The translations under genes and the position numbers were made by a program. The notes beneath the pieces are model-generated. The model saw only the letters and a program-made list of their open reading frames with translations, was not told the DNA's origin and did no database searches. Source: Acidimicrobiaceae bacterium (GTDB taxonomy: Bacteria; Actinomycetota; Acidimicrobiia; Acidimicrobiales; RAAP-2). Taken from it: DNA of 64,000 nucleotides. This document shows positions 19,808 to 27,817 of the stretch, one piece after another. The DNA is taken from assembly GCA_003142095.1 (NCBI GenBank), contig PLON01000041.1, positions 73,228-137,227 on the forward strand, given 5' to 3'. Every line of letters begins with the position of its first letter. Within the stretch, counting starts at the first letter, position 1.

Positions 19808-19902
19808 TCTTCACCTCCGCGTCCATGTTCGCAGAACTGGCGCTCGGATCGGCCTGAACCAGTGACAATCAACGAAGATAGGATCGGGGTTTCGTGAGAA
19901 GG

Positions 19903-20319
19903 ATGACGCGCACCACATCGACGGCCATTTTCGGGGCGTCGGACGGCCTCGTGGCTACGATGGCCCTCATTCTCGCCACGATGTCCCACGGTCGCAAGGT
20001 TGTTCTGGCTGCCGCCATTGGACTACTCATCGCCGAAGGTTTCGGAATGGCCGCAAGTCAGTACCTCTCTGGCGCGAAGCGCGACCTGCGACTGGCCCTC
20101 ATTATGGGAATTGCGACTTCGCTCGCCATCGTCATGCCCGCGATCCCGTGGTCCTTCACTGGTGGCGCGGCCGCGGTGGTCGCTTCGTGCTAAATAGGAC
20201 TCGTCCTGGCGGGCGTCATTGCCTACCTCCGACCCGGTGGCTGGACGGAATGGGTCCAGACGTACGGGGTTCTCATTTCGGTCGGCGTTATCGCCACCCT
20301 CGCCGGTCGCCTTACATGA
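19903..20319 (+). pseudogene. VIT1/CCC1-family metal transporter interrupted by an in-frame TAA at 20191-20193
   Basis: AIFGASDGLV and AEGFGMAASQYLS are VIT1 motifs. After the TAA the same frame continues with hydrophobic sequence (IGLVLAGVIAYLRPGG...VLISVGVIATLAGRLT*) to 20319. Confidence 0.7.
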
Positions 20320-21253: not shown

Positions 21254-22204
21254 CTACGGAATCAGGATGATCTTGCCGTGAGCGTGACCGGCCGCGAGTT
21301 CGCGATGCGCGGCCGCCACCTCCGCCAGTGGAAAGGTCGAGGCGACAATCACTCGAAGGGAACCGGCTTCCACGCGCTTCACCAATTCGAGACGTGCGGC
21401 GGCGCGAATTTCCGTTCCAGGATCGCCACCGGGTCCTCCACCGATGGCTTGAATACCGAGAGAACCAGCTCGCCCAGCGCCCACGATGGTCACAATTCGG
21501 TTTCGGTCGCTCACGAGTTCGATCGACACGTCCGCTGCCTCATCGCTACCAATGAGGTCCAGCGCCGCGTCCACTCCATTAGGCGCGAGAGCTCTCACCC
21601 GTTCGAGCAGACCGTCTCCGTACCTGACCGGCTCAGCACCGAGTTCACGCAATAAGTCGTGGGCCGATTCACTCGCGGTCGCGATCACGTGGGCGCCGTC
21701 GGCGACCGCAAGTTGGATGGCCATCAGACCGACCCCGCCCGCACCGCCGTGTACCAATACTGTGTCGCCGTTCGCCACGGAAACCGTGTGGAGCGCGTGC
21801 ACGGCAGTCGTCCCCGTCAGCATGAGGCCGCTCGCCTCTTCGAACGATTGCGCCGAGGGCTTCGCGATCACCGTACTGGCTGGCGTCACGATGGCGTCGG
21901 CGTACGCGCCCGACGCGCGGTAGACGATGACTTCGTCTCCCACGTGAATCGGACCGCTCGGACCTTCTAGTTCGCCATTTACGGTTCGCACCACGCCAGC
22001 CGCTTCCGAGCCGAGACGCATGGGCAGACTTGATGGATCATTTCCGTAGGTGCCGCTGTAGAGCTTGTAATCAATCGGGTTCGTGCCCGCGGCGCGGACA
22101 TCGACGATGACCTCTCCGGGTTGAATCTCTTTGAGTTCAGCGGTAGTGACGACAAGGACCTCGGCTCCTCCGAAGGCGGTGGCGACAACGACGGTGGTTT
22201 CCAT
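21254..22204 (-). CDS. NADPH:quinone reductase-like (MDR) oxidoreductase
   Basis: GTNPIDYK, LGSEAAGVV, VLVHGGAGGVG, GHAHGKIIL; no Zn ligands evident. Confidence 0.88.
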   Translation of the reverse strand: METTVVVATAFGGAEVLVVTTAELKEIQPGEVIVDVRAAGTNPIDYKLYSGTYGNDPSSLPMRLGSEAAGVVRTVNGELEGPSGPIHVGDEVIVYRASGAYADAIVTPASTVIAKPSAQSFEEASGLMLTGTTAVHALHTVSVANGDTVLVHGGAGGVGLMAIQLAVADGAHVIATASESAHDLLRELGAEPVRYGDGLLERVRALAPNGVDAALDLIGSDEAADVSIELVSDRNRIVTIVGAGRAGSLGIQAIGGGPGGDPGTEIRAAARLELVKRVEAGSLRVIVASTFPLAEVAAAHRELAAGHAHGKIILIP

Positions 22205-22256: not shown

Positions 22257-23798
22257 TCAGTGAGCCTTTAGGTGTCGTCGCGACCACGCTTTGTCGCGCT
22301 CGTAGAGACTCTTGATGTCTTCGGCGCGCTCACGCATCGATCGCCCCTCTTCCGGCGAGGGATGAAAGGTTGTTGCCGAAGGCTCGGGGACATTTTCTAA
22401 GGTATATCGACCGAGGGCTACCGCCCCGAGCAGCGCCGCACCGCGAAGTTGGGCGAGCAGAGGCTGGTCGATTTGGCGCACCTCGCGGTCGAGCGTGTCC
22501 GAGTAAATCTGACACCACAGCGACGATTCTGCCCCGCCACCGAGTAGCCGGATCGGCGTGAGGGTACGGCCCGCGAACTTCTCGATGTATCCGAACAGCC
22601 ACGCGCTATTCGCAGCCACGCCCTCCATCACTGATCGCACGAGTTCAGCGCTCGTAGTGGTGATCGAAAGGTTCGTAAACCCCGCGCGGATGTTTTTATT
22701 GTCAATGGGTGATCGCTCACCCGCGAGCCATGGCGTGAATCGCACTCCGTTTGAACCCGGTGGCGACGTGCCAGCGAGGGCGGTCATCTCATCGAAGCTC
22801 ATTCTCGCGCCCGAGCCGGCCATCACGTTTCGAAGCCATTCGAGCGACTTCGCCCCTGTCTCTTGGTTGTTGATCACCACGTAGGAGTCGTTGGAGAGTC
22901 CGGGGACGGCCGCGATGTTGTGGTTGATATCCGTCTTCTTCTTCGGCACCGGGCAACTGATCCACGACGTCGTTGATAGTGCCAGGTGCGTCTCGTAATG
23001 CGCGGTCGCTCCCGCGCCGATGGCGGCGGCGTGCAAATCCGGAATGGCACTCACGACGACCACATCGCTTGAGAGACCTAACTCGGAGGCGACGGCATCG
23101 CTGAGGGTACCGACGATCGATCCGAAGGGCTGAAGCGGCGGCAAGAACTTCTCATCGAGCCCCACGAGCGCGAGTAGTTGAGTGTCATAGGCGTAGCTGT
23201 CGAGTTTGCGGTTGTCGGTCATCCACATCACGAGGCGCGACGCGTGCGTCGCCGTGGCAACACCAGTGAAGCGCATCGTCAAGAAATCAATGGGTTCCAT
23301 GTACCAACGCGTCGCCGCAGCGACGTCGGGCATCTCTCGTTGTATGAGGAGAATCTGGCCGATTGGATCGGCGCCCGCGGTCGACGGTGCCCCGCCGGAC
23401 CTTCGCACGAAGGGCAACACCTTTCGAGGGTTGTAGCCCTGGAACCAACCGCCGACTGCCTCTCGCGTGTAGCGACCACCTCGTACGTCGAGCCAGGTGA
23501 CGCACGGCCCCGTGGGATTCCCGTTGGCGTCGACCGGCACGGTCGACGCGTACAGGCCCGTCACCGTAATCGCCCTCACGTTCGTGGACGATCCTTCCAC
23601 TGTGGCGAGGAGTCTCTTGGTCGCCTCGACGATAATGCCCCACCATTCGTTCGCGTCCTGGGTCGCTCCGCCGTCACCGGTGAAGTGGGTCGTGACGGAG
23701 TGAACCTCGGTCGCGATGATCTCGCCCTCGAGGGTGACGAGTCCAATCTTCGGTCCCCCACTTCCGAGGTCGATGCTGAGACAGAGCTCGGACGTCAC
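22257..23798 (-). CDS. FGGY-family carbohydrate kinase (xylulokinase-like)
   Basis: SIDLGSGGPKIG, LDVRG, PWLAGERSP, VMEGVA, LLGGGAES..WCQI.SD; GTGA overlap with the upstream lyase gene. Confidence 0.85.
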   Translation of the reverse strand: MTSELCLSIDLGSGGPKIGLVTLEGEIIATEVHSVTTHFTGDGGATQDANEWWGIIVEATKRLLATVEGSSTNVRAITVTGLYASTVPVDANGNPTGPCVTWLDVRGGRYTREAVGGWFQGYNPRKVLPFVRRSGGAPSTAGADPIGQILLIQREMPDVAAATRWYMEPIDFLTMRFTGVATATHASRLVMWMTDNRKLDSYAYDTQLLALVGLDEKFLPPLQPFGSIVGTLSDAVASELGLSSDVVVVSAIPDLHAAAIGAGATAHYETHLALSTTSWISCPVPKKKTDINHNIAAVPGLSNDSYVVINNQETGAKSLEWLRNVMAGSGARMSFDEMTALAGTSPPGSNGVRFTPWLAGERSPIDNKNIRAGFTNLSITTTSAELVRSVMEGVAANSAWLFGYIEKFAGRTLTPIRLLGGGAESSLWCQIYSDTLDREVRQIDQPLLAQLRGAALLGAVALGRYTLENVPEPSATTFHPSPEEGRSMRERAEDIKSLYERDKAWSRRHLKAH

Positions 23799-25174
23799 TG
23801 CGAGAGAATTGCGGACTGCTTGTCCATCATGTCGGCCATGAAGAACTTGATGATTGCGTCGGATTCTTCGCTCGGACCACCAGCCACTCCTCCGTAGATC
23901 GCGCCCGACTGGGGAGCTTCATCTTTGTGCTCGGTCGCGTACTGAACAGCGTCGGCCAAGTCGTCGCGCCAGCGCTCGACCACGCCGGGCTGTGTTTGAG
24001 GACGCGTCACGGCCATGTGAATCGCGTTCGGATACTGCTGGCCGTTCAGGCGCCAGCCGCGCGTGCGCAAAAAGTCGTTGATCAAATAGATGTCGAACTC
24101 GTCGGACGTGAAGGAGAAAAGGAAACTCGGCTTGCCCATGATGCGAAGCGACGGGTGCTCTTTGACGGCGTCTTGCATCGCCGCCGACGTTGCGAAGATC
24201 TGCTCGGCATAACGTCGATAGCCCTCGCGCCCGAGGTGAACCATTGCCGCCCACGTCGCGGCGAGCAGTCCGCCCGAACGAGAGCCGTCCATTCCCGGCG
24301 AGCAGTATTTTCCTCCGGACCAGTCTGTGAGATAAAAATACTGGTCGTTGCGCAGTGCCTTATCGGCGAAGCACAAGACGCTCGTCCCCTTCAGCGCGTA
24401 GCCGTATTTATGTGTGTCGGCCGAAATCGTCGTCACGCCAGGCACGGAGAAGTCGAAGGGCTCAATGTCGTAACCCAGCTCACGACCGAAGGGCAGTATC
24501 CATCCCCCGAGGCACCCGTCCACGTGCAGACCGATGTTTCGCTCGAGGGCCAATGCGCCAAGGTCGCCAATCGGGTCGATCGTGCCGTAGCCGTAGTTGC
24601 ACGCGGAACCGATCAGTGCCACCGTGTTCTCGTCAATGTGATCCCTCACCCAGTCGAGATCGACCTGCGTGGTTGTCGGATCGACGGGAGCGATCATCAT
24701 GTCGACGCCAAAGAGATGTCCCGCCTTGGAGAACGCGGGGTGGGCGGTCTCGGGTTTAATGATGTTGGGTCGACCTGTCGTCGGGTGGTGTTCGCGGTAC
24801 GCGAGCACGGCGTGCGCGATCGACCCTGATCCGCCCGAGGTGACAAGTCCAACTGGCGTCGAGTCCGTGAGATTCGACGCCCCGAGCAGATCAAGCGTCA
24901 TTGCAATGATCTCCGCTTCGAACTTCGTGTTGGACGGACACATGTCGCGCTGCAACGAGTTCACGTAGGAGAAGTAGGAGAACGCCTCGTTCAAGAAGTC
25001 GTAGTGGTCGTGGTCTCCGCAGTACATAGTGCCCGAACACTGCCCCGTTTCCCAGGCAGGATTCTCGGCCTGCGACATGACCGCCAGCGTGAACAGCACG
25101 GCGTCTTTGTCCATTCCGATCTCGGGAAGGGTTCGATGGACCTCGAACTGATCTTCGTAGGGAAACCCGCCCAT
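23795..25174 (-). CDS. PLP-dependent sphinganine-1-phosphate aldolase (S1P lyase)-like enzyme (group II decarboxylase fold)
   Basis: SGTMYCGD, NSLQRDMCPS, TSGGSGSI, TAHPAF.KA, GTIDPI, LHVDGCLGG, SADTHKYGY (PLP lysine), GSRSGG; RBS GGAGG. Confidence 0.82.
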   Translation of the reverse strand: MGGFPYEDQFEVHRTLPEIGMDKDAVLFTLAVMSQAENPAWETGQCSGTMYCGDHDHYDFLNEAFSYFSYVNSLQRDMCPSNTKFEAEIIAMTLDLLGASNLTDSTPVGLVTSGGSGSIAHAVLAYREHHPTTGRPNIIKPETAHPAFSKAGHLFGVDMMIAPVDPTTTQVDLDWVRDHIDENTVALIGSACNYGYGTIDPIGDLGALALERNIGLHVDGCLGGWILPFGRELGYDIEPFDFSVPGVTTISADTHKYGYALKGTSVLCFADKALRNDQYFYLTDWSGGKYCSPGMDGSRSGGLLAATWAAMVHLGREGYRRYAEQIFATSAAMQDAVKEHPSLRIMGKPSFLFSFTSDEFDIYLINDFLRTRGWRLNGQQYPNAIHMAVTRPQTQPGVVERWRDDLADAVQYATEHKDEAPQSGAIYGGVAGGPSEESDAIIKFFMADMMDKQSAILSQ

Positions 25175-25302
25175 TGTCGCCTCCTCGCGTCCTTCGTAGC
25201 GTAAGCCACTCGCGGGGACACTTTGGCGGCTCTCGACGCTACGCTCAGCCTCATACGTTGTCCGAGTCTGAAGTCACTGCGAAACCGCGAAAGTAGGAAC
25301 TC

Positions 25303-25743
25303 ATGGAACTAAAGGATCTCTTCAACAAGATGACGAGCCACTTGTCAGTGGGTCGGGTATTCGGTGTGGCGTACGAGAAGGATGGCGCGCTCATCATTCC
25401 TGTAGCCCTGGTCGCGGGCGGAGGCGGCGGTGGCGGAAGCGAAGCGCCGACGATGCACGCGTCGGTACGCCACTTTGACATCGACGACGACGACGACGAC
25501 GACGATGACGACGACGACGACGATGATGACGATGACGAGGAAGAGACATTCGTTGGGCGACCGATGGGCGGCTCCGGCGCAGGATTTGGCGGCGTCGTGA
25601 TGCCGGTCGGGGTCTACGTCGTAAAGGACGACCGCGTTCGTTGGGTACCCGCCATCAACGTGACGCTCATTGCGATATGCGCGATCAGTCTCGCTCATGT
25701 CTTGGCTCGACCCTCATTGAAGAGACATCACCGTCGTCACTGA
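25303..25743 (+). CDS. YtfJ/GerW-like small membrane protein with a poly-Asp insert
   Basis: VGRVFG.AYEKDG..IIPVA.V.GGGGGG and G.GFGG...PVGVYVVKDD.V.W.PA match YtfJ-like proteins; C-terminal TM helix. Confidence 0.7.
   Translation: MELKDLFNKMTSHLSVGRVFGVAYEKDGALIIPVALVAGGGGGGGSEAPTMHASVRHFDIDDDDDDDDDDDDDDDDDDEEETFVGRPMGGSGAGFGGVVMPVGVYVVKDDRVRWVPAINVTLIAICAISLAHVLARPSLKRHHRRH
25483..25545 (+). repeat. GAC/GAT trinucleotide tract coding D18-E3
   Basis: 18 consecutive GAC/GAT codons (25483-25536), then GAG GAA GAG. Confidence 0.95.
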
Positions 25744-25771
25744 CGTGCCCTAGAAGTACGTCGAAGCGAAT

Positions 25772-26242
25772 TTACGAATTCGCGGCGTTCGTGCTTTGAC
25801 CTTCGATGGCTTTGCGCAGTAGATGTGCGAGCGTCGAGCGCTCCTCGGCATCCAAAGCTCCGAGAATCTCGTCTTCGAGCGTTTGCTGGGCGGCTTCTGC
25901 TTGGTGTAGGGCCTTACGACCTTGCTCGGTCATCGACACAATGTGACGACGTCGGTCCGCGGGATCGCGGCGGCGCTCTACCAGTCCTGATGATTCAAGA
26001 TCGTTCAACAACATCACGCAGTAGTTGGTGTCAATGCAGAGACCTTCGGTCAGCGCCTGCTGCGTCACTTCGTGGTAGTCGCGTAAGTGCGAAAGGGTGG
26101 CGAGTTCCTTCAACGTCTGTCCAAGAAGCTCGGGCGTGCTGCGTCGGTTAATCAAACGTGACAGTTGGGTGAGGAGAAGAATCGGTCCGGTGGACGAATT
26201 TTCCTCCATGGAAGTTAATGGTAGCGAGGTATCGATATTCAT
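25772..26242 (-). CDS. MarR family transcriptional regulator
   Basis: TQQALTEGL.ID...CV.LLNDLE..GLVERRRDPADRRRHIVSMTEQG; divergent from an MFS gene. Confidence 0.9.
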   Translation of the reverse strand: MNIDTSLPLTSMEENSSTGPILLLTQLSRLINRRSTPELLGQTLKELATLSHLRDYHEVTQQALTEGLCIDTNYCVMLLNDLESSGLVERRRDPADRRRHIVSMTEQGRKALHQAEAAQQTLEDEILGALDAEERSTLAHLLRKAIEGQSTNAANS

Positions 26243-26323
26243 GCTATCATGATTATACCGAGAACACGATGATAAAGAATCGTTGTTCAGTGTTCCCTAC
26301 ACTACCCGCGAAGGACCTCGTCT

Positions 26324-27817
26324 ATGACAATTTCTCCTACCCTCTCATTAGGAACAACAAACCGTCGACGCTGGATCGGGCTCATTGTGGTGTGTCTGGC
26401 CATGTTGATGAACGCCCTGGACTCGTCCATCGTCAACGTGGCGCTGCCCTCCATTCAACGCGACCTCCACTTTTCCCAGTCGAATCTGACGTGGGTTGTA
26501 GACGCATATCTGATCGCCTTCGGCAGTTTCTTGCTGCTCGCGGGACGCCTCGGTGACCTACTCGGGCGAAAGAAAGTGTTCCTGAGTGGCGTGGCGCTGT
26601 TTACGGCGTCCTCGTTTATCTGCTCACTCGCGAGTAACCAAGCGATGCTCATTACCGCGCGATTCTTCCAAGGTATGGGTGGCGCAATCTCGACGTCGGT
26701 CATCGTGGCGATCATCGTGACGGAGTTTCCTGGCGCCAACGAGCGCGCGAGGGCCATGAGCGCGTACATGTTCGTCGCGGTCGGTGGAGGATCCATCGGA
26801 CTGCTTGTCGGAGGGATCTTGACCCAGGCCGTGAACTGGCACTGGATCTTCGTCATCAACGTGCCGATCGGCATCGTCACCTTCATCCTCGGTTCGTTCC
26901 TCATCAAGGAGAACCCGGGCCTCGGCGTACGCGAGGGACTTGACCTCAAGGGTTCACTTCTCATGACGGTCTCGCTCATCGTGGGCATTTACGCCATCGT
27001 GACGGCGTCGACGTACGGTTGGCTGTCGGCACACACGCTGGGCTTTGGCGCCGCGTCGCTTTTCCTGATGGGCACGTTCACTCTCTTCGAGACCCGCATC
27101 GCCAAGCCCATAATGCCAATGCGAATCTTGAAGCTGCGTAGCCTCACGACCTCAAGCGTCGTGCGAGGACTCTCGTTCTCGGCGATGTTCGCGATCTTCT
27201 TCTTCGGCGCTCTGTACCTCGAGCGCGTGCTGGGCTACGACCCACTGCGCACCGGTGTTGCGTTCTTACCGCTCACTCTTGCAATGGCGATCATGTCACT
27301 CGGGCTCACCAGTCGACTCCTTGCGCGCTTTGGCCCCATGAAGTTGCTGATCCCCGGAATGTCGATGGCCGTCATCGGGCTGCTCTGGTTATCGCGTTCG
27401 GGCGTGCACGCCAACTACCTCGTCGCCATCCTGCAAGCGTTCTTGCTGCTCGGTGTGGGCATGAGTGTGTCGGCCGTACCGCTCTTAACGATCGCCATGG
27501 CCGACGTGCCGCGCGAAGACGCCGGTCTGGCGTCGGGAATCGTGAATGTCTCAATGTGGCTCGCTTCGTCGGCGGGACTGGCAGTCTTTGGCACGCTCGC
27601 CGCGAGCAAGTCGAAGACTCTTCTCGCGAAGGGCTACTCGAGCGGTCAGGCGCTCGTGGCGGGTTATCACGAAGCGTTCTTCATCGGCGCCATTTTGGCC
27701 GCGCTCGCACTGCTCGTCATAGTCACGATGCTTCGCGCGCCGGCCAAAGAGGCCTCGGACAATCGCGAGAGCCTCGAAGAAGAGATGAGTCACTTCGAGA
27801 TCGTTGCCGAGTTCTAA
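26324..27817 (+). CDS. MFS DHA2-family efflux transporter
   Basis: LDSSIVNVALPSI, WVVDAYLI, GRLGDLLGRKK, WHWIFVINVPIG; 14 TMS. Confidence 0.92.
   Translation: MTISPTLSLGTTNRRRWIGLIVVCLAMLMNALDSSIVNVALPSIQRDLHFSQSNLTWVVDAYLIAFGSFLLLAGRLGDLLGRKKVFLSGVALFTASSFICSLASNQAMLITARFFQGMGGAISTSVIVAIIVTEFPGANERARAMSAYMFVAVGGGSIGLLVGGILTQAVNWHWIFVINVPIGIVTFILGSFLIKENPGLGVREGLDLKGSLLMTVSLIVGIYAIVTASTYGWLSAHTLGFGAASLFLMGTFTLFETRIAKPIMPMRILKLRSLTTSSVVRGLSFSAMFAIFFFGALYLERVLGYDPLRTGVAFLPLTLAMAIMSLGLTSRLLARFGPMKLLIPGMSMAVIGLLWLSRSGVHANYLVAILQAFLLLGVGMSVSAVPLLTIAMADVPREDAGLASGIVNVSMWLASSAGLAVFGTLAASKSKTLLAKGYSSGQALVAGYHEAFFIGAILAALALLVIVTMLRAPAKEASDNRESLEEEMSHFEIVAEF

Follow-up and report, generated by a model that had tools for sequence, protein, structure and literature searches.

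A stretch of 64,000 nucleotides from contig PLON01000041.1 of an Acidimicrobiaceae bacterium (assembly GCA_003142095.1), hereafter called the window, carries on its minus strand two overlapping genes. They encode a homologue of sphingosine-1-phosphate (S1P) lyase (P0001, 459 amino acids, positions 23795–25174) and an FGGY-family kinase (P0002, 513 amino acids, positions 22257–23798). The pair suggests a bacterial route, so far undescribed, in which sphingosine-like amino-alcohols are first phosphorylated and then split and which would use a new kind of kinase. Because the two genes are conserved together, the pyridoxal 5′-phosphate (PLP) enzyme is of the S1P-lyase type and the kinase is no equivalog of XylB or GlpK, a kinase-then-lyase route with a kinase that is not of the diacylglycerol kinase (DAGK) type is the best reading, the substrate being one that we infer. 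We put the probability that the FGGY enzyme phosphorylates sphingoid bases for the lyase at about 0.55.

A first-pass annotation, made from the letters of the window, had described two open reading frames: a PLP enzyme of 459 residues with the motif SADTHKYG and its own ribosome-binding site, and an FGGY kinase of 513 residues, joined to it by a GTGA overlap. This arrangement is confirmed from the sequence. The lyase gene starts with ATG, 5 nucleotides downstream of a Shine-Dalgarno-like GAGGAGG (minus strand, 25180–25186). The kinase gene starts with a GTG, whose last bases are shared with the TGA stop of the lyase gene (GTGA, minus strand, 23795–23798), an overlap indicative of translational coupling. 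This GTG start is supported by the relatives of the kinase at 88–92% identity, which are likewise 513 residues long and align at full coverage. Hydropathy plots of P0001 and P0002 revealed no signal peptide or membrane segment.

P0001 has the group II decarboxylase fold (Pfam Pyridoxal_deC, PF00282) and is, by every sequence criterion applied, a true S1P-lyase homologue (EC 4.1.2.27 family). Its closest solved relative is S1PL2021 of Burkholderia pseudomallei (BPSS2021, PDB 5K1R), matched with an E-value of 1.7e-168 over residues 4–451, followed by StSPL of Symbiobacterium thermophilum (PDB 3MAD/3MAU; 1.5e-115 with 3MAD). Human and yeast lyases are matched at about 1e-83 to 1e-87, as compared to only about 1e-20 for the amino-acid decarboxylases MfnA and GAD. 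Both S1PL2021 and StSPL cleave S1P in vitro (PMC5234717, PMC3148216). The roles of the lyase active-site residues have been described (PMC5234717, PMC10243590), which allows P0001 to be compared position by position. At the PLP site, H145, D219, H255 and K256 align with H201, D274, H310 and K311 of StSPL. K256, the PLP-binding lysine of the SADTHKYG motif (codon at 24407–24409, minus strand), also corresponds to K271 of S1PL2021. The StSPL residues contacting the phosphate and phosphoethanolamine moieties, Y105, N126, K317 and S353, are kept as Y51, N72, K262 and S298. Relative to StSPL, A103 is replaced by Thr and H129 by Gln75 (PMC10243590); the same Gln is found in the active S1PL2021, which also shares its PLP residues with P0001 and is, like it, soluble. 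The PLP-site and head-group/phosphate residues, Gln75 included, are invariant across seven diverse orthologues, down to 62% identity (alignment A1).

These comparisons bear on the idea that the PLP enzyme is a decarboxylase, or some other PLP enzyme, acting on a phosphorylated amino acid supplied by the kinase, by analogy with the L-threonine kinase and threonine-phosphate decarboxylase of cobalamin synthesis. The PF00282 fold is indeed that of group II decarboxylases, and the MfnA and GAD family models do match P0001, although below their cut-offs. However, the S1P-lyase match is better than that of any decarboxylase by some 100–150 orders of magnitude, and P0001 has kept the residues with which StSPL holds the phosphoethanolamine moiety. 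We therefore regard this alternative as very improbable indeed, and the earlier description of the enzyme as S1P-lyase-like, as opposed to a plain amino-acid decarboxylase, stands.

Co-occurrence of the two genes, the check proposed in the first-pass annotation, was strongly positive in genus, class and phylum draws. Among 24 genomes of the same genus, 14 carry the two genes side by side, without exception with the lyase first, and ten carry neither. In species-representative genomes, the kinase gene lies immediately downstream of the lyase gene in 58 of the best 80 of 584 lyase relatives, all 80 being from Acidimicrobiia. An even sample of 300 Acidimicrobiia genomes with a completeness of at least 80% was then considered, with thresholds of E ≤ 1e-110 for the lyase and E ≤ 1e-60 for the kinase. 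Here, 71 other genomes contained the lyase; the kinase was directly adjacent in 61 of them, in several gene orders, and 1.3 kb away in one. Chance is far from explaining the pairing, as the genes adjoin in so many of these genomes and as all 24 congeners have either both of them or neither. The class draw also returned 14 genomes seemingly with the kinase only. All six of those inspected have a lyase homologue of 40–42% identity right after the kinase, so that in these six cases the "kinase without lyase" pattern is an artefact of the E-value threshold.

In an even draw of 400 Actinomycetota, a close lyase was found in only five other genomes, and an FGGY kinase gene adjoins it in all five, either co-directionally, in both orders, or divergently. 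Metagenome representatives of the kinase at 33–44% identity to P0002 (P0126, P0137, P0188 and P0148) also have a PF00282 gene next to them. Within Acidimicrobiia there are at least three old lineages of the pair, and some genomes, such as G703, carry two pairs. The flanks differ from lineage to lineage, with leuCD/leuB/ilvE, malic enzyme, radical SAM, SulP, diguanylate cyclase and other genes. Since everything around the pair changes between lineages, the conserved unit consists of the two genes alone. Several neighbours were considered as further operon members and rejected, each occurring only in subsets of loci that follow local synteny: medium-chain dehydrogenase/reductase (MDR), aldo-keto reductase (AKR), Gfo/Idh/MocA, malic enzyme, class-V aminotransferase, major facilitator superfamily (MFS) and MarR genes.

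Two degenerate copies were also encountered. At L126:5972-8957 (G033:C5), the kinase sequence is broken into two frames and two in-frame TGA stops interrupt the lyase, which may reflect either a pseudogene pair or an assembly error. In G023, the only trace of the kinase behind a second lyase copy of 79% identity (C35:19211-20732; L020 / L053) is 34 residues from its N-terminus, which suggests a duplicated pair whose kinase was lost.

The conservation of the pair also has to be set against the view that the two enzymes have no common substrate, the kinase being an ordinary pentulose or polyol kinase whose adjacency results from co-regulation or from a hitch-hiking two-gene cassette. Xylulokinase is both the best family model and the public annotation of the kinase, and the kinase is unlinked in six of the genomes that have the lyase. 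But adjacency survives changes of gene order and orientation and a divergence down to 33–45% identity between pair lineages, and the two genes come and go together in the congeners. Moreover, the score with the XylB model is half of the cut-off, and xylose-pathway genes were not found near the pair. Altogether, we hold independent substrates to be very unlikely.

The kinase itself was characterised with family models. P0002 contains the two FGGY domains (PF00370, FGGY_N, 7.7e-29, residues 6–261; PF02782, FGGY_C, 4.7e-21, residues 304–461), as do E. coli XylB and GlpK. Its best NCBIfam model is XylB (TIGR01312), with 197.9 bits for a cut-off of 380.25, and the other FGGY equivalogs score lower still. 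The closest solved structures are likewise those of XylB, with an E-value of only 1e-23. An assignment as xylulokinase or glycerol kinase equivalog was rejected on these scores, even though public annotation names the kinase xylulokinase; the ESM Atlas gives only generic "xylulokinase family" clusters. Because P0002 has FGGY domains only, a sphingosine or long-chain-base kinase of the DAGK_cat type was rejected as well. By these matches, P0002 is a genuine FGGY kinase belonging to none of the characterised FGGY subfamilies.

In a MAFFT alignment with E. coli GlpK and XylB, D10, D254 and T276 of P0002 correspond to D10, D245 and T267 of GlpK, which make up the catalytic base and the phosphate loop. 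These three residues are invariant in 40 of 40 lyase-linked kinases. D254 (codon at 23037–23039, minus strand) is the counterpart of the catalytic base, D245 in GlpK and D233 in XylB. The catalytic Asp and the ATP-site residues are thus kept. In contrast, the positions of R83, E84 and Q246, the polar residues with which GlpK binds glycerol, are occupied in the lyase-linked kinases by Y/W, A/S/G and L/S/T, respectively, that is, by aromatic, small or hydrophobic residues. The genome has two other FGGY genes (G000:C46:55879-57288 and G000:C72:32858-33703), both distant paralogues of P0002. The former has every one of the GlpK ligand residues (R, E, W, Y, D, Q, F) and presumably encodes glycerol kinase.

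A tree of 136 FGGY sequences, comprising the loci, representatives at 50% identity and the two paralogues as outgroup, was built with FastTree. All 40 lyase-adjacent kinases fall in one 78-row clade with a support of 96, made of two subclades. Pairing also occurs just outside this clade (P0148), inside a 105-row clade of support 100 that holds every lyase-linked kinase. Unlinked members of the kinase family are found at L113, L122, L140, L141, L146, L147, L149 and L150.

Since the chemistry of the lyase requires it, the substrate of the cleavage step should be a phosphorylated 2-amino-1,3-diol, for which sphingoid bases and short amino-polyols are the candidates. The first-pass annotation had proposed that the kinase phosphorylates a sphingoid base or amino-polyol which the lyase then splits into phosphoethanolamine and an aldehyde, with a sphingosine or aminopolyol kinase of non-DAGK type. 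The conservation of the pair, the family of the lyase and the nature of the kinase bear out the route. As regards the substrate, for which our case is one of inference, context favours sphingoid bases and amino-polyols are possible.

If sphingoid bases are the substrate, the two genes would form a self-contained catabolic or detoxifying module for sphinganine, sphingosine and phytosphingosine released from plant, fungal or bacterial sphingolipids in peat. First, the cytosolic FGGY kinase would move a phosphate from ATP onto the C1 hydroxyl of the 2-amino-1,3-diol head group, standing in for the sphingosine kinases of DAGK fold that eukaryotes use. As judged from its close homology to assayed enzymes, the PLP lyase would then bind the phosphorylated base as an external aldimine and split it by retro-aldol C2–C3 cleavage, yielding phosphoethanolamine and a fatty aldehyde. 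More speculatively, the aldehyde could be disposed of by general oxidoreductases, such as the MDR encoded downstream here or aldehyde dehydrogenases elsewhere. The MDR might conceivably reduce the aldehyde or an enal product.

Several data argue for a lipid substrate. PF00781 (DAGK_cat) was not found anywhere in this genome, while the same search was positive in 13 of 14 control genomes; the genome is therefore without a DAGK-type kinase that could otherwise make the lyase substrate. In G032, a genome of 99% completeness from another family of the order, a lyase of 71% identity lies in a lipid-related cluster (L031:5630-12685, G032:C59). In this cluster are found the gene of a neutral/alkaline ceramidase (669 amino acids; PF04734, 1.6e-53) and, immediately after the lyase gene, that of a cytochrome P450, together with an aldehyde dehydrogenase gene in divergent orientation and, behind it, an acyltransferase gene. 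No FGGY kinase lies inside this ceramidase–lyase cluster; in the same genome, the unlinked kinase follows a FadE-like acyl-CoA dehydrogenase. On gene content, the G032 cluster looks like a ceramide-to-fatty-acid route. In G290 (L116:5158-7859, C18), the kinase and lyase genes diverge, and behind the kinase gene, on its own strand, lies that of a P450 that is 38% identical to the one of G032. In G440 (L140:6974-9907, C1), a YceI-like lipid-binding protein precedes an unlinked, related FGGY kinase by 14 nucleotides, with a divergent MarR gene; the S1P lyase of this genome stands alone, beside a SulP transporter. As we read these loci, gene context favours long-chain sphingoid bases over short amino-polyols.

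Other observations weigh against sphingoid bases, or against a strict coupling of the two enzymes. In the class draw, the kinase is located elsewhere in the genome in 6 of the 71 lyase genomes and is not found at threshold in another 3, so that the lyase can stand apart from the kinase. In two of these three genomes, the contig ends within about 1.4 kb of the lyase, and a neighbouring kinase could lie beyond it. The ceramidase family PF04734 was not found in this genome or in the 24 congeners, which implies that free long-chain bases would need an outside source. At L114:3049-7569 (GCA_040960095.1), an APC-family amino-acid-type permease gene overlaps the start of the lyase gene, and permease, lyase and kinase genes form a chain with overlaps of a few bases each. 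At three loci (L079, L106 and L109), the pair comes after Gfo/Idh/MocA and MFS genes. At GlpK positions 246 and 270, some uncharacterised kinases from outside the 105-row clade have hydrophobic residues too, which makes the argument from a lipid pocket weak. The kinase tree is a FastTree estimate, not a careful maximum-likelihood tree. Finally, we know of no FGGY kinase that acts on a lipid.

Part of this evidence would be accounted for if the same kinase-then-lyase chemistry had as its substrate a short 2-amino-1,3-diol that dissolves in water (serinol, an amino-tetritol or -pentitol, or an aryl-serinol, for example), giving phosphoethanolamine and a small aldehyde for nitrogen and carbon scavenging. 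Small polyols or sugars are the substrates of all FGGY kinases characterised so far (NCBIfam matches), the permease at L114 is translationally coupled to the lyase, and the Gfo/Idh/MocA and MFS genes before the pair at the three loci, the AKR and MDR oxidoreductases that recur near the pair and the absence of a detected ceramidase in the genus point the same way. Of the loci examined, only L114 has a transporter of its own, and this transporter belongs to a type that serves polar amines. On the other hand, small amino-diols are rare in nature as compared to sphingoid bases. The polar ligand residues of GlpK are lost in the kinase, and ceramidase, P450, YceI and FadE-like neighbours are found at related loci. 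In addition, the nearest assayed lyases act on C18 S1P (PMC5234717). A short amino-diol is thus possible as the substrate but, in our view, rather unlikely. Returning to sphingoid bases, we see about an even chance that the FGGY enzyme is a true sphingoid long-chain-base kinase, in which case it would represent a class of lipid kinase not described before, with no relation to the DAGK-fold sphingosine kinases, and would be the first FGGY enzyme directed at lipids.

The proposed route follows the logic of long-chain-base degradation in eukaryotes, in which SPHK1/2 or Lcb4/5 act first, then SGPL1/Dpl1, then a fatty aldehyde dehydrogenase. The lyase is homologous in both. The kinase differs, having here the FGGY (actin-like ATPase) fold instead of DAGK_cat, and the enzymes here are soluble and encoded as an operon. 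Pseudomonas aeruginosa, with SphR, SphA, SphBCD and CerN, senses and metabolises host sphingosine via oxidoreductase and aminotransferase-type enzymes. To our knowledge, this system includes no kinase and no S1P lyase and is unrelated in sequence to the pair. SphR and SphA are both mentioned in PMC8151288. In the paper on S1PL2021, the enzyme is presented as a virulence factor that an intracellular pathogen uses on the S1P of its host, and neither a kinase partner nor gene neighbours are discussed (PMC5234717). In contrast, the host here is a free-living peat bacterium, in which the lyase gene is coupled to that of an FGGY kinase. Within the literature searched, full-text queries gave no paper on bacteria in which S1P lyase, sphingosine or sphingoid bases are connected with an FGGY kinase, a xylulokinase or a carbohydrate kinase.

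Discussion of bacterial S1P lyases has so far treated them as instruments that intracellular pathogens direct against the S1P of their hosts. A kinase gene fixed beside the lyase gene offers a candidate answer to the question of why free-living, sphingolipid-free bacteria carry such enzymes: they may themselves produce what the lyase cleaves, starting from free sphingoid bases or from amino-diols of a similar kind. Should the kinase prove to be a long-chain-base kinase, the FGGY family would extend from sugars to lipids, and sphingosine kinase would be seen to have a replacement that is not homologous to it. Free-living bacteria that abound in soil and peat could then consume or detoxify the sphingolipid backbones of eukaryotes, and the route would act in these habitats as a sink for the carbon and nitrogen of sphingolipids. 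As both enzymes are predicted to be soluble, the pathway is readily testable.

A tblastn search of plasmids with the lyase gave only relatives of 36–38% identity, which belong to another subfamily. Around the pair, the scans of the window gave no promoter-like site, and terminator-like matches did not exceed the shuffled expectation. No terminator-like site was detected by the terminator scan between the kinase gene and the next gene, 52 nucleotides downstream, which encodes an MDR of the zeta-crystallin/quinone-oxidoreductase type (316 amino acids, minus strand, 21254–22204). This gene is kept downstream of the pair in about 8–12 closely related loci only and is considered accessory, outside the conserved unit. 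On the upstream side (25303–27817), the lyase gene is flanked by a YtfJ-like gene in divergent orientation (Spore_YtfJ, weak match), and a MarR regulator and a divergent MFS transporter follow. The position of the MarR and MFS genes is kept in the closest relatives only (L013, L033-L042), probably reflecting synteny and not function. Finally, at 19894–20193, an open reading frame of 99 amino acids matches the VIT1 iron/manganese transporter profile at positions 3–56 of 214 only and is probably a truncated gene.

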